Assembly (NCBI GenBank): GCA_964503955.1
Contig: CAZDCG010000003.1
Coordinates: 65,522-129,521, forward strand
Reading direction: 5' to 3'
Source of the DNA: an uncultured Gammaproteobacteria bacterium
GTDB taxonomy: Bacteria; Patescibacteriota; Patescibacteriia; VMEV01; CAYQCH01
Length of the DNA: 64,000 nt
Numbering within the stretch: position 1 is the first letter of the stretch; the number at the start of each line of letters is the position of its first letter. Of the stretch, positions 9,238-64,000 are shown one piece after another. The notes below the pieces were generated by a model, which worked only from the letters and a program-made list of their open reading frames with translations, searched no databases and was not told the origin of the DNA. A program made the position numbers and the translations under genes.

Positions 9238-9373
9238 TCTCAGGCTTCTTAGAATAAAACGATCGGAAGGGCAGGGCTTCCGAAGTGAGTATACAGTAGC
9301 AAATATGCCGGAAAAAATAAAGAGGGGGATTCTTCTCTAAACAACCTTCCATTCTATGCTACACTAACTTCCC

Positions 9374-10609
9374 ATGACCCAAAAACAAGCCCTCAAAATG
9401 ATGAAATCCGGGGAGAATATCTTTCTCACCGGCGCGGCGGGTTCAGGCAAAACCTATGTCCTGAACGAATTTATTCTTGGCGCGAAAAAACGCGAGCTTG
9501 AGGTGGCTGTGACCGCGTCCACCGGCATTGCCGCGACGCATATGCAGGGGATGACCATTCATTCCTGGTCCGGGATCGGCATCAAACAGGCCTTGCCGGA
9601 AACAGAATTGAAGCGCATGCAGAATAACCCGGCTCTCGTGCAGCGATACAAACGGACCGATGTGCTGATCATCGATGAAGTGTCCATGATTTCTGCCGAG
9701 CTGCTGGATCTTATCGACAAAGCCGCCAGATACCTGCGGGAAAATGACTGGCCGTTTGGCGGAATGCAGGTGATTCTCTGCGGCGACTTCTTTCAGCTGC
9801 CTCCTGTCTCTCGGGAAAGACAAGCGCGCTTTGCTTTTGACGCGCAATCCTGGCAGCAAGCCGGTTTGCACATTTGCTATCTTGAAAAAAATTACCGCCA
9901 ATCCGATACCACGCTTGAGGCGATCCTTTCCGCCATGCGCCGCAATACGGTCAGCCAGCATATGATTGACCGGCTGCTTGAATGCCAGGAAACGTCCGTC
10001 GATGATCTCTACCGTCCGACAAAACTCTTCACGCATAATGTTGATGTGGATAAAATGAATCTGATGCATCTTGAAGATTTGGAAACAGAAGAACGGAGCT
10101 ATGCCATGACATCAAAAGGAGAGAAATCCTGGGTACAGTCAATCAAGAAAGGGTGTCTGGCGCCTGAGGAGCTGCGCGTGAGAATCGGGGCGGTCGTGAT
10201 GTTTGTAAAGAATAATTTCGCGCAAGGATATGTGAATGGAACCATCGGAGAGGTGGTTGATTTCGGCGACGATAACTTTCCCATTGTGCAGCTCGCAACA
10301 GGCAAGGAAGTCACTGTTTATCCTGAGTCATGGGCTTTGCAGGACGGTGAAACGATCCTCGGTGAGATTGCGCAAGTGCCTCTTCGTTTGGCATGGGCGA
10401 TGACGGTTCATAAGAGCCAGGGAATGAGTCTTGACGCGGCAGAAATCGATTTGCGCAAATGCTTTTTGCCGGGCATGGGATATGTTGCTCTTTCGCGCGT
10501 ACGGTCTTTAGACGGACTCGCACTGAGAGGGATGAACAAAATGGCCTTTGCCGTGAATGAACGCGTCCTCGCATTTGACAGACAGATCAGCCAAGACGCG
10601 AATCTCTAA
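9374..10609 (+). CDS. Pif1/RecD-family 5'-3' DNA helicase (Walker A GAAGSGKT, C-terminal VHKSQGMSLD)
   Basis: motifs in translation. Confidence 0.8.
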   Translation: MTQKQALKMMKSGENIFLTGAAGSGKTYVLNEFILGAKKRELEVAVTASTGIAATHMQGMTIHSWSGIGIKQALPETELKRMQNNPALVQRYKRTDVLIIDEVSMISAELLDLIDKAARYLRENDWPFGGMQVILCGDFFQLPPVSRERQARFAFDAQSWQQAGLHICYLEKNYRQSDTTLEAILSAMRRNTVSQHMIDRLLECQETSVDDLYRPTKLFTHNVDVDKMNLMHLEDLETEERSYAMTSKGEKSWVQSIKKGCLAPEELRVRIGAVVMFVKNNFAQGYVNGTIGEVVDFGDDNFPIVQLATGKEVTVYPESWALQDGETILGEIAQVPLRLAWAMTVHKSQGMSLDAAEIDLRKCFLPGMGYVALSRVRSLDGLALRGMNKMAFAVNERVLAFDRQISQDANL

Positions 10610-22947: not shown

Positions 22948-25035
22948 ATGCTGAGTCGTCTGTTTGTCCGTACGATAATCACTTTCTCTTTTACGCTTCT
23001 CTTACAGACGCTCTTTTTCATTTTGTACTATCAAGCATTGGGACTCGCGTTCAGCTTCAATGCGTTTATTTACATTTTGTTCGGATCGCTTATCTGTATC
23101 GGGGCGATGCTGCTGTTCAAGCGCTCAGCCGCTGCTATCGGATTAACGCTGTTTGTGGCGCTGTTGACGATCTACGCCTTGATCAACTTCGCTTTTTTCC
23201 GCGTCTTTCATACCTTCTGGCGCGCACAGCTAGACCGGGTGGCGGCATTGAATCGTTCAATGCTTGAGCTGCTCAGTGATTTTGTCTATCTGATCCCGGC
23301 CTGGCTTTGGGGCATGAGCTTTGCGGTGGTAGCGGGATCAGGCGTTGCCTTCTTTCTCTTTGCCAGCTTTTTACGGAAAAATTTGCATTGGCAGTCCTCG
23401 AAGATCAGACTCGGCGCGCCTGTCGCAGGGATCGCGCTTATCGCTTTTGCTTCCATATCGATGTATTTCTTTACTTCGCATCTTGTCCACCAACTCTCAA
23501 AACAGTCCTACGATCGCGAACGGATCTTAAGCGAACTAAGCCTCTACGGGTTTCTCCTGCAAAGCGGATTTTCGCAACCTTCTTCGGTATCAGCGGCGCA
23601 GGTTTCTGAAGCGCAACCGCAGCAGGAGGAAACGCTCGTCCACGACGAGCCAAGCGATTTTGCGATTTTGCGCGAGCGTATCGCGGGTTTATCACAAGCA
23701 AAACCAAGAGCGGCCGCCTTGCCGCAGATGCGCGGAACATTCCCGCATATCGTCATTTACCAAATGGAATCCGTCGCTTCCTGGGCGGCGGATATGCCGG
23801 GTGTCATGCCTTTTTTCACGCAGCTCAAACAGCATGGGATCACGGCCGATCGATTCTTTTCCAATAGCTGCATGACCATCAATGCGGAATTTTCCACGCT
23901 ATGCAGTTTTCTGCCTGAATCTTACGGCCCCATGAGTGATCTTTATGCAAGCAATACCTATGCTTGTTTGCCAGAAATTCTCAGCAGTCAGTATCGATAC
24001 TCTTCCACCATATATCATGCCAATGACCCGGAATTTTGGAACCGCACGCAGCTGGCGCCGGCATGGGGATTTAATGAGCTCAAATTTTCTCCTGATTATC
24101 AATACCGTCAGAATGACGCTTCGATTCTGCAGGATATTGTTGAAGATATCAAAGCCGCTGACGCACCAACCTTGCACTATCTTGTCGGCTTTACCTCGCA
24201 TGCTCCGCATAATAAAGAGTTCCGCCAGGCACATAATGCGCAGGGCGGGCTTCAAATGCATCCTTTTCACGGGGATATTGATCCCTCAGTTAATGGCGTG
24301 GAGATTGATGAGCAGACAATCAGAGAGTATCTTGGCAATCTGCGCACCATTGATCAGGGTATTGAGCTCTTCTTTCAGCGGTTAAGCAAAGAAGGATTAC
24401 TTGAGGACACCATTGTTATTATTTTTGGGGATCATCGCTACTACAATTTCAAAACGGAGAATAAGGTAAACGATTTTTTGCGATACAATGAGCTGCCATT
24501 CGTGATGGTAGTGCCAAAAGCCTATGGCGGAACCAATCCTTCCATCGCAAGCCAGATGGATATCGCGCCGACCATTTTACATTTGCTTGAAGGCTCCATG
24601 GTGCATTTGCCTGAGCAGTTTATCGGACATAGCCTGCTTGATCCGGCCCATCCGCAAAATGCCCTCAGCAAATGTCTGGGGGAAGTTTCTTATATCGATG
24701 AGCAACAAATCATCAAAGGAGACGCATCTTTGCAGATATACAATCAGCTTCTTGGTATTTCCAATGCGCAGGCGCAAGAACAAATCCGCTTGATTACGCA
24801 GACCACCGACGACCTTATCAGGCAAAACCGCTTGCAAGGGCAGGAGGGTCAAGCAGATTTCGTGCCTGAGCTAGTCTTTACGCAGGAAACGGATACGGAC
24901 CAGGACGGCCTCTCTGATTTGCGGGAGAAGACAATCGCTACGAACAGGCTCAATAAGGATACGGACGGCGATGGGTTTCTTGACGGCGTTGAAGTAGCCA
25001 ATGGCTATGATCCGCTCGGTCCGGGACGGCGCTGA
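22948..25035 (+). CDS. LtaS/sulfatase-family phosphoglycerol-transferase-like membrane enzyme (5 TM N-terminus, extracellular sulfatase domain) with C-terminal TSP3-like Ca-binding repeats
   Basis: GDHRYYN and sulfatase-like segments. Tail DTDQDGLSDL...DTDGDGFLDG matches the tail of 2502..5723. Confidence 0.7.
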   Translation: MLSRLFVRTIITFSFTLLLQTLFFILYYQALGLAFSFNAFIYILFGSLICIGAMLLFKRSAAAIGLTLFVALLTIYALINFAFFRVFHTFWRAQLDRVAALNRSMLELLSDFVYLIPAWLWGMSFAVVAGSGVAFFLFASFLRKNLHWQSSKIRLGAPVAGIALIAFASISMYFFTSHLVHQLSKQSYDRERILSELSLYGFLLQSGFSQPSSVSAAQVSEAQPQQEETLVHDEPSDFAILRERIAGLSQAKPRAAALPQMRGTFPHIVIYQMESVASWAADMPGVMPFFTQLKQHGITADRFFSNSCMTINAEFSTLCSFLPESYGPMSDLYASNTYACLPEILSSQYRYSSTIYHANDPEFWNRTQLAPAWGFNELKFSPDYQYRQNDASILQDIVEDIKAADAPTLHYLVGFTSHAPHNKEFRQAHNAQGGLQMHPFHGDIDPSVNGVEIDEQTIREYLGNLRTIDQGIELFFQRLSKEGLLEDTIVIIFGDHRYYNFKTENKVNDFLRYNELPFVMVVPKAYGGTNPSIASQMDIAPTILHLLEGSMVHLPEQFIGHSLLDPAHPQNALSKCLGEVSYIDEQQIIKGDASLQIYNQLLGISNAQAQEQIRLITQTTDDLIRQNRLQGQEGQADFVPELVFTQETDTDQDGLSDLREKTIATNRLNKDTDGDGFLDGVEVANGYDPLGPGRR

Positions 25036-41666: not shown

Positions 41667-41742
41667 GGGTCCGTAGCTCAGCTGGTAGAGCAGTTGCCTC
41701 TTAAGCAAACGGTCCTGGGTTCGAATCCCAGCGGGCCCACCA
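41667..41742 (+). tRNA. tRNA-Lys(CTT)
   Basis: anticodon loop CTCTTAA; CCA encoded. Confidence 0.85.
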
Positions 41743-41749
41743 TTTCTAC

Positions 41750-41826
41750 GCACTCGTAGCTCAACTGGATAGAGCACCTGGCTTCGGACCAGGGGGTTGG
41801 GGGTTCGAATCCCTCCGAGTGCACCA
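41750..41826 (+). tRNA. tRNA-Arg(TCG)
   Basis: anticodon loop CTTCGGA (G37 unusual); CCA encoded. Confidence 0.75.
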
Positions 41827-41906
41827 TATAAATCTGCTTCGCAGATCGCATTATGCGGCCTAACGATGACGGCGGGCATCTGCGTGAGGCGATGGGTATT
41901 ATGCGC

Positions 41907-41983
41907 GGGCGCGTAGCTCAGCTGGTTAGAGTGCTACATTGACATTGTAGAGGTCAGAGGTTCGAGTCCTCTCGCGCCCACCA
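41907..41983 (+). tRNA. tRNA-Val(GAC)
   Basis: anticodon loop TTGACAT; CCA encoded. Confidence 0.9.
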
Positions 41984-42024
41984 TGATTTAATCAGGGTGA
42001 ACAAACCGATCCTGCACAACCATG

Positions 42025-42045
42025 ACCCCGCAAGGGGTTTTTCTA
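42025..42045 (+). terminator. short terminator ACCCC-gcaa-GGGGT TTTTT after tRNA operon
   Basis: read directly. Confidence 0.4.
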
Positions 42046-42089
42046 TTACGCTTGAATATTCGTTGCCTCTGAAATAACATGAGAACACT

Positions 42090-42590
42090 ATGAAACAACT
42101 CATTTCATTCGTGCTCGCAACAAGTCTGCTCCTTACCGGATGTATTTCAAAACTGGAAGAACCTGTTGCTTTCACGCAGGAAAATTCCGTGCAAGCCAAT
42201 CCCGAGGGGAGAAATTTTCACGTGAGAATTCCTTCCGGCACCAAGTTGGTTTTGACGGAAGAGAATGAGGCAGCCAAGCTTTATCGCGTGTCAGACGCGT
42301 CGTCGGGGATGACCTATGCGTTTGTCGAGGAGACACCGATGTCGGTGGAGCAGGCAATCTCCTTGCTTGGAAATCTTGATGAGGTGACATTGCTGGACAA
42401 GCAGGCCGTTGAACTCAACGGCTATGACGGACAAAAAGTGTATGCCGAGCTGGACCACAAAAGAGGCCAACGCGTGCCGTATTACTTTCTTCATGCGGGA
42501 AATCGAACCTATGTCTTCAGCCTGGCTGGAGGGCAGCCCTGGGAATATTTCGATGCATTCGCGCAAAGCCTTGTTTTATCGAACGAGTGA
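42090..42590 (+). CDS. lipoprotein (lipobox LLTGC), unknown function
   Basis: signal peptide plus Cys. Confidence 0.65.
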   Translation: MKQLISFVLATSLLLTGCISKLEEPVAFTQENSVQANPEGRNFHVRIPSGTKLVLTEENEAAKLYRVSDASSGMTYAFVEETPMSVEQAISLLGNLDEVTLLDKQAVELNGYDGQKVYAELDHKRGQRVPYYFLHAGNRTYVFSLAGGQPWEYFDAFAQSLVLSNE

Positions 42591-43433
42591 ACCGAGGACA
42601 GGGATATAGTGCTTGAGCTTTAGGGAAAGACTCAATTTTGGCTGCGAGAAAAGATTGTATTCTCTTTGCCGGATCGATTGTACGAGGTGGTGCTGCGTTT
42701 CAATAAGCGATGCAAAGGCGTGATGAAGCGAAGACGGCAAGTGCTTAATTTGTTTTGCGGCGGCCTGGGCTTCTTCTTCAATAAGCGCGAGATAGCGTTC
42801 CACAAGCTGCTGAAAACCTTCCGTGATGATCTGCACTTCAAAATCATGCTTGCTATAACCTATTTTTTTCATTTCTGAACGAGGCAATACGCATACAGTT
42901 CGTCGATAATCCTGCCCTGCATAGGTTAAAAGCAAAAGCAGCTCTCCATTTTTCATAAGGGTTTTGATCGCTCTGCGGCCATGCGCGTGTTTTACGTTCA
43001 GCAGGGGAGCAAGCAAATCCGTATAGGCCTGCGCAACGGCATGAACATGGCGCCGCAACTGAAGCGCATTGTCAAAATGAGGCTTTTTCTGCTGCGCGAT
43101 CCGCAATTGTGCGATTTTTGTGACGCGTTTGGGTGGTAAATGGAAAATTTTGCAGGTATGAACCACCGCGTGCATATAGGCATTTGAACAATGATCGGTT
43201 TTCATTGCTTCTTCAAATATTGTTTTCCAGGAGCGCATGGCCGCAGCCTGCTCCTTTTTTGTCACGCCGTGTTTTGGGTTATGCAGCATCTCAAGAAGAA
43301 TCCGGTCATAGGCAAAAATTCCATGCAGATGCGGTTGGATCTCCTTGGGCAGCAGATGAAGGGTATGATGCAATTTGGTGCCGTAGTGCCGGTTCAGCTG
43401 GCGGCATTCTTCAAAGCTTTGTGTTAAAGACAT
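42576..43433 (-). CDS. squalene/phytoene-synthase-fold protein lacking the Asp-rich catalytic motifs (possible pseudoenzyme)
   Basis: CRQLNRHYGTKLHHTLHLLPKEIQPHLHGIFAYDR resembles the CrtB/HpnD N-terminal signature. Start set at ATG 43433 (MSLTQ) because the longer ORF would run through xerC. Confidence 0.4.
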   Translation of the reverse strand: MSLTQSFEECRQLNRHYGTKLHHTLHLLPKEIQPHLHGIFAYDRILLEMLHNPKHGVTKKEQAAAMRSWKTIFEEAMKTDHCSNAYMHAVVHTCKIFHLPPKRVTKIAQLRIAQQKKPHFDNALQLRRHVHAVAQAYTDLLAPLLNVKHAHGRRAIKTLMKNGELLLLLTYAGQDYRRTVCVLPRSEMKKIGYSKHDFEVQIITEGFQQLVERYLALIEEEAQAAAKQIKHLPSSLHHAFASLIETQHHLVQSIRQREYNLFSQPKLSLSLKLKHYIPVLGSLVR

Positions 43434-43434
43434 G

Positions 43435-44406
43435 TCAGTTGTTTTTCGTTTTTTTTCTGGAACGATCGTGAAAGGCCTTATGCACGTCACGCAATTGCTG
43501 GTTGGTGATATGCGTATAGATCTGCGTGGTGGTAATGCTTGAATGGCCAAGCATAGATTGTACGGATCGGATATCCGCTCCATTGAGCAGCAAGTCAGTG
43601 GCAAACGAGTGGCGGATCGTATGCGGGGTGACATGCTTGGTGATGCCTGCTTCGCGGGCATATTTCTCAACCATGCGCTGGACGCTGCGCGGGGTGAGCG
43701 GCATATATTCGGCCGACCGCTTGCTCGCGCGGTCATGGCGTACAAAGAGAAACAGGGCATCATCATTCCTTGCGTCAAAATATTCTTTCAGTGCGTAACG
43801 CGCCGCGTGCGAGAGAAAGGCTACGCGCAGCTTCCGTCCTTTTCCACGAACGGTGAACTCATCTTTTTTGAGATTCACTGAATCGCGCTTCAGGCTGACA
43901 AGCTCCGAGACGCGCAAGCCGGCGCTGAACAAAAGTTCCAAAATAGCTTTGTCCCGGAGTTTGAGGATTTTGGCCTGCTTCGATTTCAGCGGAGCTTCAA
44001 GAAACGCCTGCAAGTCGCTGCCGTCAAGAAAGTCCACCTGCCGTTCAGGGATTTTGCCAAGCTCAATTTTTTCGGGAGCCATGGTTTTTACGTCGCGCTT
44101 GGCAAGATATTTCAACCAGGAACGGAGCGCGACCAAATGGTAATTCTTCGTATTCGATTTTAATCCATCGCCTTGTTGATTTGTTTGTTCGTTCAGCCAG
44201 AGGCGATACCGTTTCACCAGATTTTGATCGATGTCCTTTGGATGTTTGGCACCCTTCGCTTTTGCAAAACCGACAAATCTGCGCAAATAGAAATCGTAGT
44301 TCTGAATGGTTTGCGGGCTCCGCTCTTTCTCAAGTTCCATGTATTCCAAGAAGTCGGTAACGGCGCGATCGAGCGGGGAAGAAGTTGTTTTTGTTTGCGT
44401 CGACAT
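43435..44406 (-). CDS. xerC: tyrosine recombinase XerC/XerD family
   Basis: R..HxxR..Y catalytic signature HTIRHSFAT...LGHSSITTTQIYTH. Confidence 0.9.
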   Translation of the reverse strand: MSTQTKTTSSPLDRAVTDFLEYMELEKERSPQTIQNYDFYLRRFVGFAKAKGAKHPKDIDQNLVKRYRLWLNEQTNQQGDGLKSNTKNYHLVALRSWLKYLAKRDVKTMAPEKIELGKIPERQVDFLDGSDLQAFLEAPLKSKQAKILKLRDKAILELLFSAGLRVSELVSLKRDSVNLKKDEFTVRGKGRKLRVAFLSHAARYALKEYFDARNDDALFLFVRHDRASKRSAEYMPLTPRSVQRMVEKYAREAGITKHVTPHTIRHSFATDLLLNGADIRSVQSMLGHSSITTTQIYTHITNQQLRDVHKAFHDRSRKKTKNN

Positions 44407-51744: not shown

Positions 51745-51859
51745 CTGATCCTGTGGATAAACCACCCCTTGCAATCTCCCTCAAACCAAGTACAATGTAA
51801 TTGTAAGCGCCGTCGCAAATATTGAGACGGCGCTATTTTTGTTCTATTATCAACTCACT

Positions 51860-52234
51860 ATGAATGTAAATTCAGTCACATTGATCGGACACCTTACGCA
51901 GGATCCGGTTTCAAAAGCCTACGGAGATAACCAGGCTTTAACGAAGTTCAATCTGGCCACCAATGGCCGGACAAGAGGCAAGCAACATGACGCGGCGGAG
52001 TTCCATACAGTTATCACTTTTGGCAAGCTGGCGGAAATCTGCAAGGAATATCTCAGGAAAGGCAGACTGGTCTATGTCAACGGACGTTTAAAAACATCTC
52101 GCTGGAAGGATGACAAAGAGGTCCTTCACACCAAAACCGAAATCATCGCCAATGAGATGCTGCTCCTTGATAAGAAACATGCTTTGGCAAGCGCTGCTTC
52201 CGAGGAGGCGGTTGCCGCTGAGGCGCACAGCTGA
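51860..52234 (+). CDS. ssb: single-stranded DNA-binding protein
   Basis: OB-fold MNVNSVTLIGHLTQDP; start at internal ATG. Confidence 0.8.
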   Translation: MNVNSVTLIGHLTQDPVSKAYGDNQALTKFNLATNGRTRGKQHDAAEFHTVITFGKLAEICKEYLRKGRLVYVNGRLKTSRWKDDKEVLHTKTEIIANEMLLLDKKHALASAASEEAVAAEAHS

Positions 52235-53353: not shown

Positions 53354-55687
53354 ATGCCGCGAGCCATCTTGGCTTTGCTCCTGCTTGGATCCTTGCCAGG
53401 CACCTGCCTGGCCCAGGCCGAGCGATGCGCGTTTTATGCGCAGAACCCTTCCCTCATTCAGGTGGGGCAAGGGCAAGTCATCGAGCGCGAGGTGGAAATC
53501 GTCTACACCAATACGGGGACATCCACCTGGCAGAGGACGGGAGGTGTTTCTAATCTCTCGTACATCGAGCTGCGCGCGGTCAATCAGCAAGGAGCCGTCA
53601 TCGACGGCCCGCTCTACCATCCTACCTGGATCAACCGCCAGCGCGTGGGGTCGTATCTCAGCATTCAGGGCGGGGTTGCTCCTTCGCAGCGCGCCAGATT
53701 CGTGTTCAAGGTTCTCGTGGATGGTTCAATACTCGCGCCCGGATCGCATGATTTCTACTTCCGCCCATATCATGCGAGCGGAGGATATATCAGCGACTGG
53801 GGCGGCTGCCATATCACCGTGACGGTGACACAGGGCGGGGCTACGCAGCCTCAGGTTCCTGCCGCGACCATCCTCTCCATCACGCCCAATCCGGCCGCAA
53901 GCGGTCAAGCGGTTTCGATCTCCGGTTCAGCAACGAATCAGCCGATCGAGTATCGATGGGAAAGCCAGGGGCAACTCCTGTCTGATCAAGCGTCCTTTTC
54001 GCGCGTATTCGCTTCCGGCGTGCATCAGATTGGTTTTCGCGCCAGAAACGCGCAAGGCTGGGGTACTTGGCAATACGCCACGCTCACGGTCAACAGCCCG
54101 TCGCCAACTTCCCAGCAATCCTACATCGACCAGGTGCTCGTGCCTCAGGTCGAGTACGCGGGGCCGGGGACGGTCGGACAGCCGGTCAACCTGGTTACGT
54201 CCGCCGCCGAGGTGCGCAAGTACCATGAGCTGCAGCTGGCTGGTCACGGGGTTCCGTCTTCAACAGGGCACGAATGGTTCGTGCGCCAGAACGGCCAGAT
54301 CAAGCCGGTTGCTACTCAGGCTGCTGCTATCGTGAACACGGCTGACTTCTTTGACGGACAGCAGGAGCTGCTCTACCGGACGCGCGGCGCGAACGGAGTC
54401 TGGAGCAGCTACGCGGTCCTGCCGATCAATGTCAGTCCCTGGCCGAAGCTGATCCCGCCGGTGCATGGTTCCTGGGCGCGAAGCGGCAACGATTACGGGG
54501 AGGGGGATCATACTCGGTCCGGCTCATACGACCATCTCCACGCGCAGGATTACAACCAGGCGAATGGAGAACCGGCCAATGCGGATTTCGGGCGTGAAAT
54601 CATCGCGCCGCTTTCCGGCAAGGTGACTGCTCTTGGCGCATCGGCCAACGGAGGCCGGTATGTGACCATTGAGTCATCCGACTCCGGTGTTCTGTACCGC
54701 GCATCGTTTTACCATCTCATGACGATAGCCGTCGAACAGAATGAGGTGGTTGCGCAGGGGCAGCCTATCGGTCTTTGCGGTAATACGGGACAGGCTTCCA
54801 CCGGATCGCATCTGCATTATGTGCTGCATCGCCAGCAAGGCGGGGCATGGGTTTCGGTTGCGCCCGAGCCGGTCTGGGTGGAACCCGCCCGGCTTGAGCA
54901 AAGCATCCCGCATGACTGGCAGCGCGATATTCGCGCAAACAGCCGAGTCTTGCCAAGCAGCTTGCTGATCCTTCAGGAGCAGGTCAGCGGTGGGGTGACG
55001 GATATGCACGGCTGGGGGCATGTGATGAAATACGCGCCAACGGTTTCCGGCCAGCCCACGGCGAGCCAGATCCTGCAGTGCGTTATCCCCGTTGCCGGGC
55101 GATGGAAGCTCTTTGCGCATAACCCAAGCGGTTTTACCAATAGCAATGCTGGATCGCCCGCTCACAATACGAGCGGAAAGGCAGTATTTGAGGTGACCAG
55201 ATCCTCGCAGCCAGGTCCTGCTACGCATGAAGTAGACCAGCACAATGGGGAAAAGGGAGCGCTGGTGTTCATCTGCGAAATCGATGCGCAGCAAGGAGAA
55301 ACCCTGATGATCCGGCAGCACAATGCAACCGGGGAACAGGGTAAGGAAGTTGCTTTTGACGAGCTCATCCTCAAGCTCGTGCATGCTTCTGGAGCAGGAG
55401 GAGGAGGTTCTGGAGGCGGATCCTCAAGCGGGGGATCTTCTTCCGGCGGGGGTTCAGGTGGAACATCTCCCTCAAACCCGCCTTCTCCACCGCCACCGCC
55501 CCCACCTTCATCTTCTTCGTCTTCTCCATCTCAAGGAGGTGCCGCAACGACTCCATCAGCAGGCGGGGGAGGCGGCGGTGGTGGCGGATGCAGCATGAGC
55601 AGCTCGGGCGGTCCGTCGTCTGCCTCGCTCTCGCTGCTCATCTGCAGCCTGTTTCTCGTTTTCGTCTTCAGGAGAGTCATCTCCTAA
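53354..55687 (+). CDS. GC-rich secreted M23/LytM-family metallopeptidase with long N-terminal domains and Gly/Ser/Pro-rich tail ending in a hydrophobic helix plus RR
   Basis: GGAG RBS; HxxxD and HLHYVLH M23 motifs; C-terminal GGGGGGGGGCSMSSSGG...LFLVFVFRRVIS. Confidence 0.75.
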   Translation: MPRAILALLLLGSLPGTCLAQAERCAFYAQNPSLIQVGQGQVIEREVEIVYTNTGTSTWQRTGGVSNLSYIELRAVNQQGAVIDGPLYHPTWINRQRVGSYLSIQGGVAPSQRARFVFKVLVDGSILAPGSHDFYFRPYHASGGYISDWGGCHITVTVTQGGATQPQVPAATILSITPNPAASGQAVSISGSATNQPIEYRWESQGQLLSDQASFSRVFASGVHQIGFRARNAQGWGTWQYATLTVNSPSPTSQQSYIDQVLVPQVEYAGPGTVGQPVNLVTSAAEVRKYHELQLAGHGVPSSTGHEWFVRQNGQIKPVATQAAAIVNTADFFDGQQELLYRTRGANGVWSSYAVLPINVSPWPKLIPPVHGSWARSGNDYGEGDHTRSGSYDHLHAQDYNQANGEPANADFGREIIAPLSGKVTALGASANGGRYVTIESSDSGVLYRASFYHLMTIAVEQNEVVAQGQPIGLCGNTGQASTGSHLHYVLHRQQGGAWVSVAPEPVWVEPARLEQSIPHDWQRDIRANSRVLPSSLLILQEQVSGGVTDMHGWGHVMKYAPTVSGQPTASQILQCVIPVAGRWKLFAHNPSGFTNSNAGSPAHNTSGKAVFEVTRSSQPGPATHEVDQHNGEKGALVFICEIDAQQGETLMIRQHNATGEQGKEVAFDELILKLVHASGAGGGGSGGGSSSGGSSSGGGSGGTSPSNPPSPPPPPPPSSSSSSPSQGGAATTPSAGGGGGGGGGCSMSSSGGPSSASLSLLICSLFLVFVFRRVIS

Positions 55688-55981
55688 AGACAGGGAGGGT
55701 AAGTCTTCTGAACTTGCCCTCCTTTTCACATTCTGCGGATATAGATCGAGCTGCTCCTCTTCAGACGGATGGATGGGCAAGCAGGTACCTGATACCTCAA
55801 GCGTTACAGCTGGATTCGAGATTCATCCGCGCCGTTAGTGCTCCAGCGTAGTGGAAAAAGCTTTCTTCTCAACGAATATAGTTAAATGCCTCTAAATCGT
55901 TGATTTTTTCGATATTCATTGCCAGCCCGGTTTCAAGGAGGTATAGTGATTCTGCGCCGTCGTTAATATCGAGGTGGCTTT

Positions 55982-56869
55982 ATGAATATCCTGGCAATAA
56001 TTCCCACAAGCAAACAGGAGGCCGTTGAATGGGTCGAGCAATTACCTGAGTTGAAGCTGTTTACTCAGGTGAAAGCCATGACCATTCCCTGGCATCAAAC
56101 AGGCATTGGCACGACACAGGACTGGATTGAGCTTGTCCGGGCTGTTGCTGCGCATGCGGATGCAGATGGTTTTATTGTCTGGGCTCCTGATCAATCATTG
56201 CTTGAAACGGCGGGGCTCTTGCAATTATCATTGCGGACTCCAGGGAAGCCGGTTATTGTTTTTTCCGCGCCCGCTCCGGAAAAATTGAACGGGAAAAAAT
56301 TTGAAAAACTCGGATTAAAAGCCACGCTCGTGCGCGCGGCATTTCTTGCGCAGTCGGATCTTGGCGAGGTGGTTATTTTAAACGGCGAACAAGTTTTGCG
56401 TCCGTCTCAGTGCGCTGCTTTGCTTGAGCATGGGATACGTCTTCATGAAGAACAGCCGCTGGCGTCTGTCAGCTTCAAGTTGGAATTTCATCAAGCGTAT
56501 GTAAAACGAAGTCAAACTCCGATGATTGCCGACCTTCCAGCAACCTTGGTTGAAGAAGCCAGGCCGATTGAATGGTCGCCAGCGCTTCCATTCAAGGGAC
56601 AGGAAACACCGGCTATTCCGCTTATTCGTTTTCAGCCAAGCCATTGGCATGTGCAGCCGCTTCAAACGCTTCGCAGGGAATTGCTTGAAAAACGAAAGGC
56701 AATCGTTTGGCATACGGACCAGCCCTTTGCCCCCGGTGAGCTGGATGCTCGGGAGCGGGTTTTAGACAACCGGGCGAACTGGTGGGCGGCATTGACTTGG
56801 CAGTATGCCTATTCGTTGAATCCGGAAAACCCATTAGCGGTTCTGGATGCATTGAATCAACAAGTATGA
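55982..56869 (+). CDS. asparaginase-fold protein with catalytic threonines replaced (TGGTIAG becomes IPTSKQE, HGTDT becomes WAPDQ): probable non-catalytic asparaginase-like domain protein
   Basis: collinear similarity to type II asparaginase N-domain (DGFIVWAPDQSLLETAGLLQLSLRTPGKPVIVFSAP). Confidence 0.5.
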   Translation: MNILAIIPTSKQEAVEWVEQLPELKLFTQVKAMTIPWHQTGIGTTQDWIELVRAVAAHADADGFIVWAPDQSLLETAGLLQLSLRTPGKPVIVFSAPAPEKLNGKKFEKLGLKATLVRAAFLAQSDLGEVVILNGEQVLRPSQCAALLEHGIRLHEEQPLASVSFKLEFHQAYVKRSQTPMIADLPATLVEEARPIEWSPALPFKGQETPAIPLIRFQPSHWHVQPLQTLRRELLEKRKAIVWHTDQPFAPGELDARERVLDNRANWWAALTWQYAYSLNPENPLAVLDALNQQV

Positions 56870-57378
56870 ACATCTCTCTTTTAGAAACAGCCTGGATTCA
56901 TGATGAAAATGGTACCGGACTTGAAGGAATGCTCAAGTCGCTTGGGGCGCGCGTGCATGATGCCCGGGAAATGGAAGCCGGCATGGAGCGGATTGATGCC
57001 CTTGTCATCGGTTCGGCAGCAGACGCAAAGGCAAAATATTTAGTCGCCTTGGCAAGCTCGCAGAAGAAACCTGTTTTATGGATCGTGCGTGACAAACGAG
57101 AAGAGCAAGGAATAAAAAAAACGTTTTCAACAGTTTCAGATCTCGTTGTGGTTCGGTTTGATCCACAAACCCTCAGCGAAGCGTGTAAACGATTTTTCGC
57201 GCAGCATGCTACTATTGAGGAGAAGCCGACGATAAAGTTTACCTTGCGCATTACCCCCGCAATGGATAAATACCTGCAGTGGAAAAGCAAGCAAACCGGT
57301 TTATCCAAAGCCGATTTCTTGCGTGAAACAATCCAGTCGCAGATTATCGATCAGGATCAAGCCTATACAAACGAGTAA
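56866..57378 (+). CDS. protein with C-terminal ribbon-helix-helix (CopG/MetJ-like) domain
   Basis: ATGA overlap with upstream gene; KFTLRITPAMDKYLQWKSKQTGLSKADFLRETI. Confidence 0.5.
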   Translation: MNISLLETAWIHDENGTGLEGMLKSLGARVHDAREMEAGMERIDALVIGSAADAKAKYLVALASSQKKPVLWIVRDKREEQGIKKTFSTVSDLVVVRFDPQTLSEACKRFFAQHATIEEKPTIKFTLRITPAMDKYLQWKSKQTGLSKADFLRETIQSQIIDQDQAYTNE

Positions 57379-57380
57379 TT

Positions 57381-58118
57381 ATGGCCGTGGAGGCGCCGGA
57401 AAGAATCAAAAGCAATTTAGACGACGCTCGCAATCGAGCGGCGCGGCCTTCGCCGTCAAATCAGCAGGCGGACCGGCCGGGCAATCTGTCGCCTTCTCTT
57501 GAAGGAGGACTCGGAACGCCATTGCCGTCTTTTCCTGCGGCCTCATCACAAAATCCGCAAACACAGCCGCAAGATGCTCAGCAGGAGGGCGCGCAGAGGA
57601 TGAGGGCAACTCTGGAAGGTGTCCGCAATCAGGCTCGGGCAAAACAAAACGGAGAAACCAAAGAAGAACAGAAGAAAACAAAAACTTCGCAGGCTGCATC
57701 GATTGATCTGAAGGATTTTTTCCGCCGTTCGATTGGGTTTGCTTTGCTGGGTTTGGCTTACGACCTGCTCATGGCCGCCCTGGATTTTCTTTTGGGACTG
57801 GGCTCTATTGTCAGCATTCCCGGTAATTTTGTCATGTGGGGAATTTACTGGTTCCGAGTCTGGAGATTTATGCCTAAATCCCTGAGAGGAAACGGGATGC
57901 TCGAATTCAGTAAAGCGCGTAAACATTTTGCGTTGAACATGATTATTGAAACCATTCCAATCGTTGGCCAAATCTGGCTGGGATGGTTTGGCATCGGGCT
58001 AGATGCTTATATCATGGTTTCGCGCGAGAAAAAGAAGCAGGATCTTGCGCAAGGCGGAGCTAATGGGGAGAAAAAAGCAGGCAACGGCAAAGGGCAGCCG
58101 CAAGCCGCTAAATCATGA
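57381..58118 (+). CDS. membrane protein with Pro/Gln-rich N-terminus, unknown function
   Basis: start 3 nt after upstream stop; 3-4 TM. Confidence 0.55.
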   Translation: MAVEAPERIKSNLDDARNRAARPSPSNQQADRPGNLSPSLEGGLGTPLPSFPAASSQNPQTQPQDAQQEGAQRMRATLEGVRNQARAKQNGETKEEQKKTKTSQAASIDLKDFFRRSIGFALLGLAYDLLMAALDFLLGLGSIVSIPGNFVMWGIYWFRVWRFMPKSLRGNGMLEFSKARKHFALNMIIETIPIVGQIWLGWFGIGLDAYIMVSREKKKQDLAQGGANGEKKAGNGKGQPQAAKS

Positions 58119-58620
58119 GCAGGCGGATAAAGACCTCGGCGTTGATTTTGACATCCTCAAGCGCACGATGCGCTTTTGAATAGTCGATGCCAAACTCGCC
58201 GGCCAGCGTTCCTAAACGATGCGACCCCAGATGGGGCATTTTTTGTCTGGAGAGATCCAGTGTGTCAATCAGCGAGTTTTCAACGGGAGCAAGACCGAGC
58301 TGGAGCAGGTGGCGGTTAAGAAATTTCATGTCAAAATCGCGAATATTATGGCCCACAAGCGTGGTGTCGGAAATAAACTCAATGAATTCCGGAATCACCT
58401 GATTAAGCGGCTGCCCATGTTTGGCGATAAATTGGTCGGTGAGCCCATGAATTTTGATCGTTTCCGGATGAGAGGGGATGCCTGTGTGGATAAATCGCTG
58501 GAACTCGGCAAGATGATTACCTTGTTTGTCGATGCGCAGAGCGGCAATTTCAATAATCGCGTCACCTAAATGCGGGTAAAGACCTGTTGTTTCGGTATCA
58601 AAGACAATAAATTGTTCCAT
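58108..58620 (-). CDS. DEDDh 3'-5' exonuclease (DnaQ/epsilon-like)
   Basis: Exo I FDTETTG, Exo II, Exo III H...D. Internal ATG 58620 chosen because the ORF-track start overlaps the divergent promoter. Confidence 0.75.
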   Translation of the reverse strand: MEQFIVFDTETTGLYPHLGDAIIEIAALRIDKQGNHLAEFQRFIHTGIPSHPETIKIHGLTDQFIAKHGQPLNQVIPEFIEFISDTTLVGHNIRDFDMKFLNRHLLQLGLAPVENSLIDTLDLSRQKMPHLGSHRLGTLAGEFGIDYSKAHRALEDVKINAEVFIRLLMI

Positions 58621-58698
58621 ACGTAAGTTGGTATTGGTTGAACTATTATGAACCACATCATGCGCGCAGACAAGCTCTTGGTTCAGCTTAGGAAAACA

Positions 58699-58707
58699 TG
58701 GTATAAT
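58699..58707 (+). promoter_or_regulatory. extended -10 TGgTATAAT for the T4SS-like operon
   Basis: read directly; the ORF-track TTG start lies inside it. Confidence 0.45.
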
Positions 58708-58736
58708 TGCACTCGAAAAGGACATTTTTTCCGTGC

Positions 58737-61394
58737 ATGAATAAAAAGAAAAAAATAGGTTTTTTGCTTTTGTTAGCTGCGTTGTTTGTCACGGGCAGTC
58801 TTTTTGCTCATGTTGAACCTGCACATGCAATCATTCCTACCCTGGAAGATGCTGCAAAAGCTTCTGTAGCGCCTTTTCTGGTACTCATAGCCAGTATTCT
58901 TTACTTTATATTGCGCGCCGTCACATGGCTTGGCTCCTTTGCGGTGGATGCGTTGCGCATCGTAACTTCGTACAACCAGTTTAACATTGAAGAGGTACAG
59001 ATTGGATGGAGGATCGTGCGCGATATCATCAATAGTTTCTATATTGTAGTTCTGATTGCGATCGCGATATCCACGATTATCCGCTTCCAAAAATTCGATT
59101 TTCGTCAGACGCTTCCAAGACTTCTGATTTCGGCAGTTTTAGTGAATTTCAGCTTTTCCATTTGCCTCTTGGCGATCAATTTCACTAGCTCGGTAATGTT
59201 CACCTTTGTTCGTGGTATTGACCAGTCGTGGCCTGGTTTGCTTATTGGATTGCGCGCTCCTCAGATTACGGCATTGGGGGCAGGCACGCTTGGACCCTTG
59301 AGTGTTGAAGGTTTGGAAAACGCAGCGAGAGAACCATTAGGATACTTAAATGCCATTGTCGCGGTGCTGTTCGGGATTGTTATTATGGGCATCGCAATCT
59401 TTGCGATGCTTACATATCTTCTCATTCTCGTCGTTCGCATTGTGGTGCTATGGCTTCTCATCATTCTCTCTCCATTGGCCTTCTTTTTATGGGGGACGCC
59501 AGGGAGAGCGCAAAATTATTGGGGGGATTGGCTGGGTGAATTCATCAAGGCACTTATTACAGGGCCGGTACTTATGTTCTTTTTATATCTTAACATTATG
59601 TTTTTTGTTGAGAATGCAGCCGATCCTGCTCCCTACGGTTTTAATATCGCAGCTAGCCAGCTTTCAAGCCAGGGCACTGTAACCGCAATAGGGAGCGTGG
59701 GAGCGCTCTTCCCGTTCATAGTAGGTATCACATTGATGTTCGCCGGTCTTGAAATTGCCAATAGTCTCGGCGCCCGCGGAACGGCTTTTGCTCAGAATGC
59801 CTCTAAGAAACTATTGAGCGCGCCGCTGAAATATGCGGGGCGGAAGCTTCAAGAATACGATTCCAAACGATATAAGGATGATAAGTTCAGTGTACAGTCT
59901 GTCATGCAAGGACTTGCGACTCTCAGTGGAGCAAGCGATGCAAAAATCAAAGCGAATATCGCAGAAGGGCAGCGCAAACGGCAGGAGCTCGCTGGGAAGC
60001 TCCCTGCGGGTGTTGGGCAGTATGTTAAGGGGCTTACCGGCGGAAGTGTTGACCTTACAAAAGATGTAAATGCTTTATTTGGTGAAGATAGTCTTTTAAA
60101 GCGAACGGGAAAAAGCATTGTTGGTATAGGGGATAAAAATTGGAAAAATCTGGATGCTTTGACGGATGAACGGAGCAAGCTGCAAAGCAGACAGCTCTCA
60201 AGAAAATTATTGGCAAATGCGGAGCCCGGGGATTTAGTTAAAACCAGGGCCGATCTTGAAAACGAAATCGGTCAAAGGAATGGTTCAATCCAATTACATC
60301 AAAATCAGCTCTCGGAAATTCGTCGTTTAGAGGAGCTTAATGACAAATATTACAATCAGCGGATCCCGCTTAGCGATCAGGAGAAAATGGAATATAAGCA
60401 GCTTGAATCCAGTCTGGATGTAAATGGAGCAGAGAAAGAAGACATGCAGCGCCTTGCTGCCGAAGCTGCGGAACACGAACAAACTATTGAAGAACTCGAA
60501 GCCAAAAATAGAGAACAAAATGAATTGGCTACCACACTTAAAGCGGCAGGTATTTCAGACGAACAAACTGCGGGGCAATTCAAACAGGAAGTTGATTCGG
60601 CTTATATCTCGGATGATGCTCGTGAGAAGGAACTCCAAAAGGTTATCAGAGGTCGCCGCCAGCAGCTGCAGGCTATTAGATCAACCCAACGGCATAATGA
60701 TCGCAAAGCGGAAAAAGAATATCGCGATGTCGCTTATGAAACCAATGAGCGATATCCTGAAGAGTATATCTTTGCGCAGGCTCTTAGTAATGCCACGAAT
60801 AAAAATCAAATTGAATTTGGAGCTGATCTTGTCAAGGCGGCGGACCAAGGCATGTTTGATAACATTGTGCTCAAAATCATGAAAGAGCAGATGGATATCG
60901 ACAATCCGGTGCTGGATGAACAAGGTATGAAAACATTTGTAGATAAATATATGGTTGAAAAAGTAGGAATGAGAAAACAGCAGGCGCTCGATGTCATTAC
61001 ACGTGTCAGTGGCAGAAATCAGGCCGATTTTCACCCAACGCAATCGTTCTTTACCAAAATGGACGATTCGGGAGATTATCGCTTGTCTTCCAAAACTGAA
61101 CGCAGTGAAATGATTCAAAAAACAATTGAGAAAAAGCTCAAAGCCGTTCTCACAAAAGGCGGAGCAGATGGTATTACCATTCGTGATAAGACTGGCAAGA
61201 AAGTGATCCACCCTGCTGTTCGCAAGGCGTTTAAAGAGCAATCAGGAACGCTTAAACAAGTTTTACAGGATCAGCGTTTCTACACGGATCTCGAACGAGA
61301 AGTGGCTGTCATGTTGCGCCAGGAGGCTAATGCCTCTGGTATACCGGACAGTGAGATCAAAGGCTTCGTGGATTCATTGACCTCAACTTCTTAA
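58737..61394 (+). CDS. polytopic membrane protein with large coiled-coil C-terminal domain; PrgH/TcpH/VirB6-like conjugation/T4SS channel component
   Basis: signal peptide, 6 or more TM, long charged C-terminus; operon with PrgI-like gene. Confidence 0.5.
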   Translation: MNKKKKIGFLLLLAALFVTGSLFAHVEPAHAIIPTLEDAAKASVAPFLVLIASILYFILRAVTWLGSFAVDALRIVTSYNQFNIEEVQIGWRIVRDIINSFYIVVLIAIAISTIIRFQKFDFRQTLPRLLISAVLVNFSFSICLLAINFTSSVMFTFVRGIDQSWPGLLIGLRAPQITALGAGTLGPLSVEGLENAAREPLGYLNAIVAVLFGIVIMGIAIFAMLTYLLILVVRIVVLWLLIILSPLAFFLWGTPGRAQNYWGDWLGEFIKALITGPVLMFFLYLNIMFFVENAADPAPYGFNIAASQLSSQGTVTAIGSVGALFPFIVGITLMFAGLEIANSLGARGTAFAQNASKKLLSAPLKYAGRKLQEYDSKRYKDDKFSVQSVMQGLATLSGASDAKIKANIAEGQRKRQELAGKLPAGVGQYVKGLTGGSVDLTKDVNALFGEDSLLKRTGKSIVGIGDKNWKNLDALTDERSKLQSRQLSRKLLANAEPGDLVKTRADLENEIGQRNGSIQLHQNQLSEIRRLEELNDKYYNQRIPLSDQEKMEYKQLESSLDVNGAEKEDMQRLAAEAAEHEQTIEELEAKNREQNELATTLKAAGISDEQTAGQFKQEVDSAYISDDAREKELQKVIRGRRQQLQAIRSTQRHNDRKAEKEYRDVAYETNERYPEEYIFAQALSNATNKNQIEFGADLVKAADQGMFDNIVLKIMKEQMDIDNPVLDEQGMKTFVDKYMVEKVGMRKQQALDVITRVSGRNQADFHPTQSFFTKMDDSGDYRLSSKTERSEMIQKTIEKKLKAVLTKGGADGITIRDKTGKKVIHPAVRKAFKEQSGTLKQVLQDQRFYTDLEREVAVMLRQEANASGIPDSEIKGFVDSLTSTS

Positions 61395-63730: not shown

Positions 63731-63732
63731 TA

Positions 63733-64000
63733 TGCAGTATACCGTTCCGCAATTTATTGATCAGGAGGACAAAATCATCGCCTTCATTACCGTGCGGCAA
63801 TTTTTGATCATGATTGTGGCGGCTATTTTCATGGCAATCTGTTACGCTTTGCTCCGATTCGCGTACTTTGTTGCCGCCTCCGTTGTCATCGCTCTCATCA
63901 CGGGAGTGGTGGCTTTCCTGAAAGTGAACGGACGGCCCTTTCATTTCTTCCTGATCAGCTATATCGAGCGCATGAAGAAGCCGAATGTGCGTGTCTGGAA
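63733..64000 (+). CDS. PrgI/VirB3-like small membrane protein (partial, runs off window)
   Basis: MQYTVPQFIDQEDKIIAFITVRQF matches the PrgI-family N-terminus, followed by a TM helix. Confidence 0.55.

Follow-up and report, generated by a model that had tools for sequence, protein, structure and literature searches.

Two kinds of protein are treated here, asparaginase-fold proteins and ribbon-helix-helix (RHH) transcription factors. Among the former, GatD of the archaeal Glu-tRNA(Gln) amidotransferase GatDE retains its catalytic threonines and has a GatB-like tRNA-binding subunit as partner. Among the latter, NikR joins an RHH to a regulatory tetramerisation domain (ACT-like), binds two 6-bp half-sites with a spacer of 16 and autoregulates, and the omega repressor binds short repeats that overlap promoters in direct or convergent, not divergent, orientation. 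Patescibacteria account for a large share of bacterial diversity and have tiny genomes with very few recognisable transcription factors; to our knowledge, almost nothing is known about their gene regulation. Here, a stretch of 64,000 nt (the window) of contig CAZDCG010000003.1 (assembly GCA_964503955.1, Patescibacteriota in GTDB) was analysed, in which three same-strand genes at 55982-58118 encode an asparaginase-like protein (gene 1), a putative RHH transcription factor (gene 2) and a membrane protein (gene 3). With slightly better than even confidence, genes 1 and 2 are read as a phylum-wide two-gene module, comprising an autoregulated RHH repressor and a non-catalytic pseudo-asparaginase, with a small regulon that includes ssb. 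What was observed are the fold, the catalytic loss, the coupling of the two genes, their pairing across the phylum and a motif at defined positions; from this we infer that the RHH protein binds the motif, that it represses and that both proteins form a complex.

The boundaries of the three genes (Table 1) agreed exactly between the open reading frame (ORF) list and the public gene calls. Genes 1 and 2 share an ATGA overlap (GTATGAAC), as the first-pass annotation, made from the sequence without database searches, had stated; the gap between the TAA stop of gene 2 and the start of gene 3 is 2 nt and not 3 nt. Gene 1 matched the Pfam Asparaginase N-terminal model PF00710 with 33.3 bits (gathering score 22.5), and a phmmer search of gene 1 against PDB returned asparaginases only. 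The family profile reached guinea-pig ASNase1 (E 1e-11) and GatD (1zq1, E 6e-8). The AlphaFold2 (AF2) model of gene 1, with a predicted local distance difference test (pLDDT) score of 63.7 overall and 75-88 in the N-domain, matched full-length type I/II asparaginases in Foldseek (E 3e-10, TM 0.64), and the top matches were all asparaginases. The profile searches, which the first-pass annotation had named as a test of its proposal, and the fold search confirmed the asparaginase fold, and the collinearity proposed for the N-domain holds, with both domains present.

The alignment with HMMER placed the HGTDT motif opposite A68-P-D-Q-S72, so that T89 is replaced by D (E in the family) and D90 by Q; the motif is lost as proposed, and the suggested counterpart WAPDQ was one residue out of register. 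Catalytic K162 lies opposite A146 (W in the family consensus). The first catalytic motif (TGGTIAG) and the Tyr25 lid loop are also absent, mostly through a deletion of about 15 residues in the window clade that leaves no GGT motif rather than through the substitution by IPTSKQE given earlier. Residues were counted in an alignment of 57 non-redundant pair-associated homologues, in which an E. coli AnsB reference served only to label the columns. The T89 column held V/I/L in 41 of the 57 and T in two. At T12, Ser was present in 19 and Thr in six (25 in total), the rest having other residues; D90 was retained in 39 and K/R at 162 in 34. None of the 57 homologues had Tyr25, and the substrate-binding columns S58, Q59 and E283 showed no conservation across them. 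The residues that are conserved in the family belong to the scaffold (PEL, DW, GFV, KP, TG and NLINA). The canonical double-displacement chemistry is thus lost family-wide, most fully in the window clade. Gene 1 is an asparaginase-fold protein without the catalytic residues.

For gene 2, the C-terminal 50 residues matched the NikA-like model of Pfam (E 7e-4) and the RelB-like model of NCBIfam (E 0.011), both below the cut-offs. Across 74 homologues the strand K124-F-T-L-R128 and the residues K148-A-D150 were invariant, and a Pfam search of these members gave NikA-like as the best match in 24 and a weak HicB match in seven. The AF2 model (pLDDT 88.3) showed two helices (131-144 and 148-161) after the KFTLR strand, which was unpaired in the monomer model, as expected of an RHH. 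The C-terminal RHH motif proposed from the sequence alone was thus supported, though by sub-threshold profile matches. The N-terminal two thirds of the protein form a separate domain that had been missed, similar to flavodoxin and nucleoside 2-deoxyribosyltransferase (NDT). A profile alignment to DNPH1 placed YLIA opposite YELG, and the catalytic Glu of the G-x-E-x-G helix is missing. A receiver (REC) domain was rejected for this region as its signature residues, namely an acidic pocket after beta1, a phospho-acceptor Asp closing beta3, Thr/Ser after beta4 and Lys after beta5, are missing, and a diverged asparaginase domain was rejected at an hhalign probability of 0.8%.

Homologues were recovered by an exhaustive phmmer search and through the genomic context of the RHH partner, and a word-index protein search gave five members. 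The asparaginase-like gene was not recovered from GTDB representative genomes (single protein and 7-sequence alignment) or JGI metagenomes (7-sequence alignment). For gene 1, the exhaustive search produced 13 close clusters of 30-37% identity with a WAPE-type motif and, as a second tier, about 70 clusters whose proteins have roughly 320 aa; six of the latter were aligned, all without HGTDT. The RHH partner family gave 311 matches, with named members from Parcubacteria, Woesebacteria, Buchananbacteria and other Patescibacteria. In neighbourhood look-ups of eight distinct loci, the RHH gene was in every case immediately preceded by the asparaginase-like gene. A further 80 loci came from scanning metagenomes with the partner alignment, and pairing was counted in 57 non-redundant Patescibacteria loci with at least 1 kb of upstream sequence. 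The asparaginase-like gene was directly upstream of the RHH gene in 49 of the 57, one ORF was inserted between the two in six, and two divergent RHH homologues had no asparaginase-like gene. The stop-to-start distances of the pair were mostly -4 to +6 nt. The inserted gene of locus L060 (related loci are cited by number) is a small GIY-YIG-type ORF at 9285-9602, with another in L015 at 1558-1827, and this type of insertion accounts for most loci with a non-adjacent pair.

The order ssb, lipoprotein, M23 peptidase, pair, membrane protein, exonuclease and type IV secretion system (T4SS) operon recurs in L002, L003 (partly), L004 and L011. In L006, L008 and L010 the pair lies beside unrelated genes away from T4SS genes, as it does in many metagenome loci. 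Conservation of the triad next to PrgI/VirB4 genes in related genomes had been named as a check, and the three genes do occur together in the window clade (the four loci of shared order). The conserved unit across the phylum is therefore the two-gene pair and not the triad, and the membrane gene, exonuclease and T4SS neighbourhood are specific to the window clade. No homologue of either pair protein was found in IMG/VR viral contigs or PLSDB plasmids and the flanking synteny is conserved, so the module is not mobile. Against L004, identity is 77% for both the exonuclease and PrgI but only 33-35% for the asparaginase-like and RHH proteins, so that the pair evolves much faster than the genes around it. 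In one subfamily the pair is flanked by HisKA_7TM-GAF membrane proteins without a recognisable kinase domain, some with a hexamer site upstream, which are possible signal-input partners.

A repeat motif, GCCGTC-N10-12-GCCGTC/GACGGC, was found by comparing upstream regions side by side, and was then counted as exact hexamer pairs 9-16 nt apart. In lineages whose proteins share only about 30% identity, the hexamers are placed downstream of the -10 box and upstream of the asparaginase-like start codon. A total of 117 pairs were present in 909 kb against 0.6 in shuffled sequences, and 99 of 105 paired sites from non-redundant loci were outside long ORFs. The spacers were 10, 11 or 12 nt, and the paired sites start 3-12 nt downstream of -10 boxes. 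By orientation, 94 pairs were direct (75 forward and 19 reverse), 23 convergent and none divergent, which fits a DNA-binding protein and not an RNA hairpin since most sites are direct repeats that are unable to pair. The invariance of the hexamer is matched by that of the KFTLR strand in the RHH.

The site stands in front of the operon of the pair in most lineages: 42 of the 117 exact pairs stand before the asparaginase-like gene, and one or more exact hexamers are present in 48 of 59 upstream regions. In a subfamily without a site at the asparaginase-like gene, the site precedes the 7TM-GAF gene that heads the same gene string. The motif was also found upstream of ssb in six of nine cases, and in 11 of 18 upstream of a gene for a 76-aa protein that consists of the GreA/GreB C-terminal domain only (PF01272, E 2e-13). 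In the window, the palindromic site before ssb is the sole exact paired site outside coding sequence. Its distance from the preceding TTGCAA-17-TACAAT promoter is about 10 nt, and it has counterparts upstream of ssb in L002, L003, L004 and L011. In front of gene 1, the degenerate second hexamer of the triad site overlaps the Shine-Dalgarno sequence, and equivalents with two exact hexamers at this position were found in L002, L004, L008, L010, L011 and many metagenome loci. Another window pair (24964-24987) was rejected as a coding artefact, formed by Asp-Gly codons of TSP3 calcium-binding repeats (DTDGDGFLDG) in a sulfatase-domain protein (22948-25035), and such a false positive calls for caution in genome-wide motif scans. 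Control of the T4SS operon by the RHH protein was rejected, as no GCCGTC site is present in its promoter region (58621-58736).

In the proposed mechanism, the C-terminal RHH dimer of gene 2 would recognise the hexamer GCCGTC, and two RHH dimers (a dimer of dimers) would occupy two hexamers 10-12 nt apart in a NikR- or omega-like manner. The N-terminal NDT/flavodoxin-like domain, predicted to be catalytically dead, may serve oligomerisation or signal input. Repression is the expected effect of binding, given the position of the sites directly behind the -10 box. Besides its own operon, which it would autoregulate, the factor would govern ssb in the window, and in other lineages it may control the GreA-C-terminal-like mini-protein and the 7TM-GAF membrane proteins. 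The pseudo-asparaginase would take part stoichiometrically and without catalysis, as oligomeric scaffold, co-repressor or anti-repressor. In the window clade, the module lies within the ssb/M23/T4SS neighbourhood and has gained the membrane-protein gene as a third member. A bolder and rather doubtful extension is that the pseudo-asparaginase and the pseudo-NDT/DNPH1-RHH protein form a phylum-specific sensor-regulator complex, which would read the host-derived nutrient or (deoxy)nucleotide status of auxotrophic epibionts and set ssb, the GreA-like RNA-polymerase-binding mini-protein and the 7TM-GAF sensors, partly through a unit of promoter, operator, short terminated leader and second operator that maybe yields a small RNA.

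Several observations weigh against an autoregulated repressor with a non-catalytic partner. The RHH assignment combines sub-threshold profile matches with a modelled helix-helix segment, the AF2 model of gene 1 is of moderate quality only and was built from five sequences, and the window operon's own site has one exact hexamer only. About 45% of the other-lineage homologues keep Ser/Thr at the nucleophile and 34 of 57 keep Lys/Arg at 162, and residual or altered chemistry may be possible in these proteins. GCCGTC could also be bound by another factor. In a rival reading, either some other regulator binds the repeats or they work at the RNA level, as leader or attenuator, and the RHH protein has its target elsewhere. 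As RNA, the ssb site forms a strong hairpin (-19.3 kcal/mol, z -4.3) followed by a U-run, which may point to an RNA-level role in the window clade, and in other lineages a hairpin and T-run stand between the first site and the regulated gene. However, the inverted sites are a minority (23/117), the triad leader showed no significant RNA structure, and the motif accompanies the RHH gene's own operon in most lineages. No Rfam family matched the motif regions and RNAalifold found no shared structure in a crude leader alignment; together with the prevalence of direct repeats, this led to rejection of the motif as an RNA element, and the wider explanation, including another regulator, is held to be quite improbable. 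A different possibility is that the RHH protein autoregulates and that the asparaginase-like protein is unrelated cargo, merely co-transcribed, with a possibly structural or altered enzymatic role. This would suit an operator at the operon start, given that a complex of the two proteins is one that we infer, and also the homologues that keep Ser/Thr12, D90 and K/R162. It is at odds with the near-obligate adjacency and the close junctions over phylum-scale divergence, with the unconserved substrate-binding residues and with the neighbourhoods of L006, L008 and L010, where no other metabolic gene is consistently linked, and we regard it as unlikely.

The remaining explanations assign the pair to known accessory systems. 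The RHH protein could be a NikA/TraY-like relaxosome factor on an oriT-like repeat, acting with SSB and the exonuclease in DNA transfer, as might be suggested by the NikA-like best matches in Pfam and by the position of the window-clade module between ssb/M23 and the PrgI/VirB4 operon. But in L006, L008, L010 and many metagenome loci the T4SS genes are far away from the pair, the window ORFs that were scanned with Pfam include no relaxase, the motif stands at promoters of several genes and not at that of the T4SS operon, and PLSDB plasmids gave no homologue; a conjugation accessory therefore has a low probability. Least probable is a toxin-antitoxin system with the gene order of HicAB, with the asparaginase-like protein in the role of toxin and the alpha/beta-plus-RHH protein in that of antitoxin. 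Gene order, translational coupling, the C-terminal RHH and an autoregulatory operator would all fit, weak HicB matches occur as given above, and one JGI member of the partner family is labelled HicB family, all others being hypothetical wherever named. Such a system is very hard to reconcile with the phylum-wide syntenic chromosomal positions and the absence from plasmids and viral contigs, with an operator shared with ssb and other genes, with an N-domain that is flavodoxin/NDT-like and not of HicB fold, and with a supposed toxin that lacks catalytic residues; PADLOC gave no match to the pair.

Further structure was observed around the sites. The ssb leader (51834-51862) has no recognisable Shine-Dalgarno sequence, the short leader being almost wholly palindrome and U-run. 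In many lineages, a fixed unit lies directly 3' of the RHH gene and is headed by a consensus TTGACA-17-TAtAAT promoter, followed by a hexamer pair (11-12-nt spacer), an A-rich stretch, a hairpin with T-run, a second hexamer pair (10-nt spacer) and a GreA-C-like gene or ssb. The stems of the hairpin vary in sequence between loci with complementarity kept. The unit was also seen in L026, L030, L044, L047 and L020, in addition to the loci of Table 1; it had no Rfam match and RNAalifold on a crude alignment was negative. An attenuator is one possible function of the unit, a small RNA of about 90 nt another. In addition, DnaA-box-like nonamers (TTATCCACA or TGTGGATAA, and one-mismatch variants such as TGGGGATAA) adjoin hexamer sites; these may instead be extended -10 elements (TGnTATAAC in L031 and L041).

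Table 1. Positions of features in the window and, where a locus number is given, in related loci
Feature	Position	Strand	Remarks
Palindromic operator-like site	51807..51833		GCGCCGTC-N11-GACGGCGC, perfect; 26 nt before ssb ATG
ssb	51860..52234	+	Pfam SSB E 2e-28; ORF opens at 51839 (TTG), likely start ATG 51860
M23 peptidase	53354..55687	+	777 aa; Pfam Peptidase_M23 E 9e-15
Sigma-70-like promoter of triad	55919..55947	+	TTGCCA-17-TATAGT; 10/12 consensus matches
Triad operator-like site	55954..55978		exact half-site GCGCCGTC (55954-55961), 11-nt spacer, degenerate GGTGGC
Asparaginase-fold pseudoenzyme (gene 1)	55982..56869	+	295 aa; N and C domains of type I/II L-asparaginase
Putative transcription factor (gene 2)	56866..57378	+	170 aa; residues 1-115 flavodoxin-like, NDT/DNPH1-like; 122-165 RHH
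Membrane protein (gene 3)	57381..58118	+	245 aa
DEDDh 3'-5' exonuclease (DnaQ/PolC-exo-like)	58108..58620	-	RNase_T E 5e-31; ORF reaches 58725
Large polytopic membrane protein, first gene of T4SS-like operon	58737..61394	+	homologous to 939-aa (L004) and 1120-aa (L002) proteins
PrgI-family T4SS gene	63732..63998	+	cut by window end; 77% identity to L004 PrgI (PF12666)
HisKA_7TM-GAF genes	L060 6788-8197, 10392-11861; L051 4820-6271; L010 8593-11363		
Fixed unit 3' of RHH gene	L040 10540-10850; L041 10525-10825; L031 1660-1895; L025 2990-3285; L006 10650-10870		
DnaA-box-like nonamers	L020 about 10690; L044 about 10640; L011 about 8365; L029, L074, L079		in L029, L074 and L079 upstream of asparaginase-like gene

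Gene 3 encodes a protein with a disordered, Q/P/A-rich N-terminal half and three to four hydrophobic helices in the C-terminal half. It had no family match in Pfam, NCBIfam or PADLOC, showed weak similarity (27-28% over about 100-160 aa) to its positional counterparts in L002 and L004 and is kept only within the window's clade. Gene 1 is preceded by a Shine-Dalgarno sequence, and a terminator-like inverted repeat (55689-55727) separates the triad promoter from the M23 gene, which is conserved context upstream of the pair in this clade. The M23 protein has a signal peptide, a Gly/Ser/Pro-rich tail and a C-terminal transmembrane anchor, and is 41% identical to a 796-aa protein of L002 and 48-66% to a 776-aa protein of L004. 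Its C-terminus, with a long Gly/Ser/Pro low-complexity stretch, a poly-Gly-Cys segment, the hydrophobic anchor and then RR, resembles a sorting or anchoring signal, and the peptidase is a candidate cell-wall hydrolase for the T4SS cluster. The ssb product is 57-63% identical to the SSBs of L002 and L003.

The DEDDh exonuclease named in the first-pass annotation is genuine, and its divergent arrangement applies to the T4SS-like operon only; with the triad it is convergent, having 11 nt in common with the end of gene 3. The 171-aa orthologue of L004 shares 77% identity with it, and position and strand are the same in L004 and L011. Because the orthologues are 170-171 aa, the true start is probably M36, giving 170 aa, and the annotated 205-aa start would lie 35 codons too far upstream. 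This gene was the only PADLOC match, through its generic DEDDh domain, and a defence-system reading was dropped. The T4SS-like operon has its own extended -10 promoter (TGGTATAAT), and two unannotated proteins lie between the large polytopic membrane protein and the PrgI gene. TraC-like and VirB4-like genes continue downstream in the syntenic L004 and L011, and the T4SS adjacency that had been proposed is confirmed.

The wider window contains tRNAs and genes for GyrA, FtsH, NusB, RNase III, PNPase, IF-2 and TsaD, a chromosomal gene content as in other small genomes. Near a three-tRNA cluster (region 41667-44406) there is a tyrosine recombinase gene (43435-44406, minus strand), which is more likely a resident of XerC/D type than the edge of a mobile element because the recombinase/S15/NYN/PNPase synteny is also present in L011. 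At the window start (1-2421), the first 2 kb have a GC content of 61% against about 50% elsewhere, and two overlapping ORFs of more than 700 codons lie on opposite strands (193-2421, minus; 244-2373, plus).

The pairing of an asparaginase-like scaffold with an RHH protein had been put forward earlier as an undescribed module, and no description of it was found in the searchable literature or in Pfam, NCBIfam and PADLOC. Pfam and NCBIfam have no specific model for either protein family, and papers on Patescibacteria T4SS and genomic context make no mention of the pair genes. The results suggest that a pseudo-asparaginase partner for an autoregulated RHH factor, together with a newly defined operator, is new here. 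The putative conserved factor, its operator and a first regulon (its own operon, ssb, GreA-like and 7TM-GAF genes) offer a testable entry to gene regulation in Patescibacteria. A LexA-based SOS network in this phylum was reportedly described by Sanchez-Osuna et al. 2017. An SOS-type regulon was considered for the sites and not adopted; neither recA nor lexA was found in the window. If the proposed role is true, gene 1 would be a rare case of the asparaginase fold as a non-catalytic partner. Domain-based metabolic reconstruction of Candidate Phyla Radiation (CPR) genomes would count its family as asparaginases, probably wrongly.

In comparison with known systems, gene 1 shares the two-domain fold and the scaffold motifs PEL, DW, GFV, KP and NxxNA with bacterial type I/II L-asparaginases (PF00710/PF17763; EcAI, EcAII, guinea-pig ASNase1), but differs from them in lacking the T12 motif, the lid, T89, K162, S58, Q59 and E283 and in having a predicted DNA-binding partner. 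GatD is likewise an asparaginase-fold protein that is the obligate partner of a second protein, whereas the partner of gene 1 is an RHH protein and its catalytic residues are gone. The N-domain of gene 2 resembles the NDT/DNPH1 (Rcl)/MilB superfamily, with the catalytic Glu missing. NikR resembles gene 2 in joining an RHH to a non-DNA-binding domain, in hexamer half-sites with a spacer of at least 10 bp and in autoregulation, which is proposed for gene 2; however, gene 2 has its RHH at the C-terminus, an NDT/flavodoxin-like domain, a 10-12-nt spacer and direct as well as inverted repeats. The similarity of gene 2 to the RHH of NikA/TraY relaxosome proteins and HicB antitoxins is sub-threshold. 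HicB, too, carries its RHH at the C-terminus behind an alpha/beta domain, with a different N-domain fold. Most lineages of the pair have no relaxase or oriT context, and the pair is not on mobile elements. Finally, the GCCGTC pairs, direct or convergent and never divergent at promoters, resemble the operators of omega, CopG, Arc and MetJ, but those repressors are small, single-domain proteins that use contiguous repeats and have no pseudoenzyme partner.

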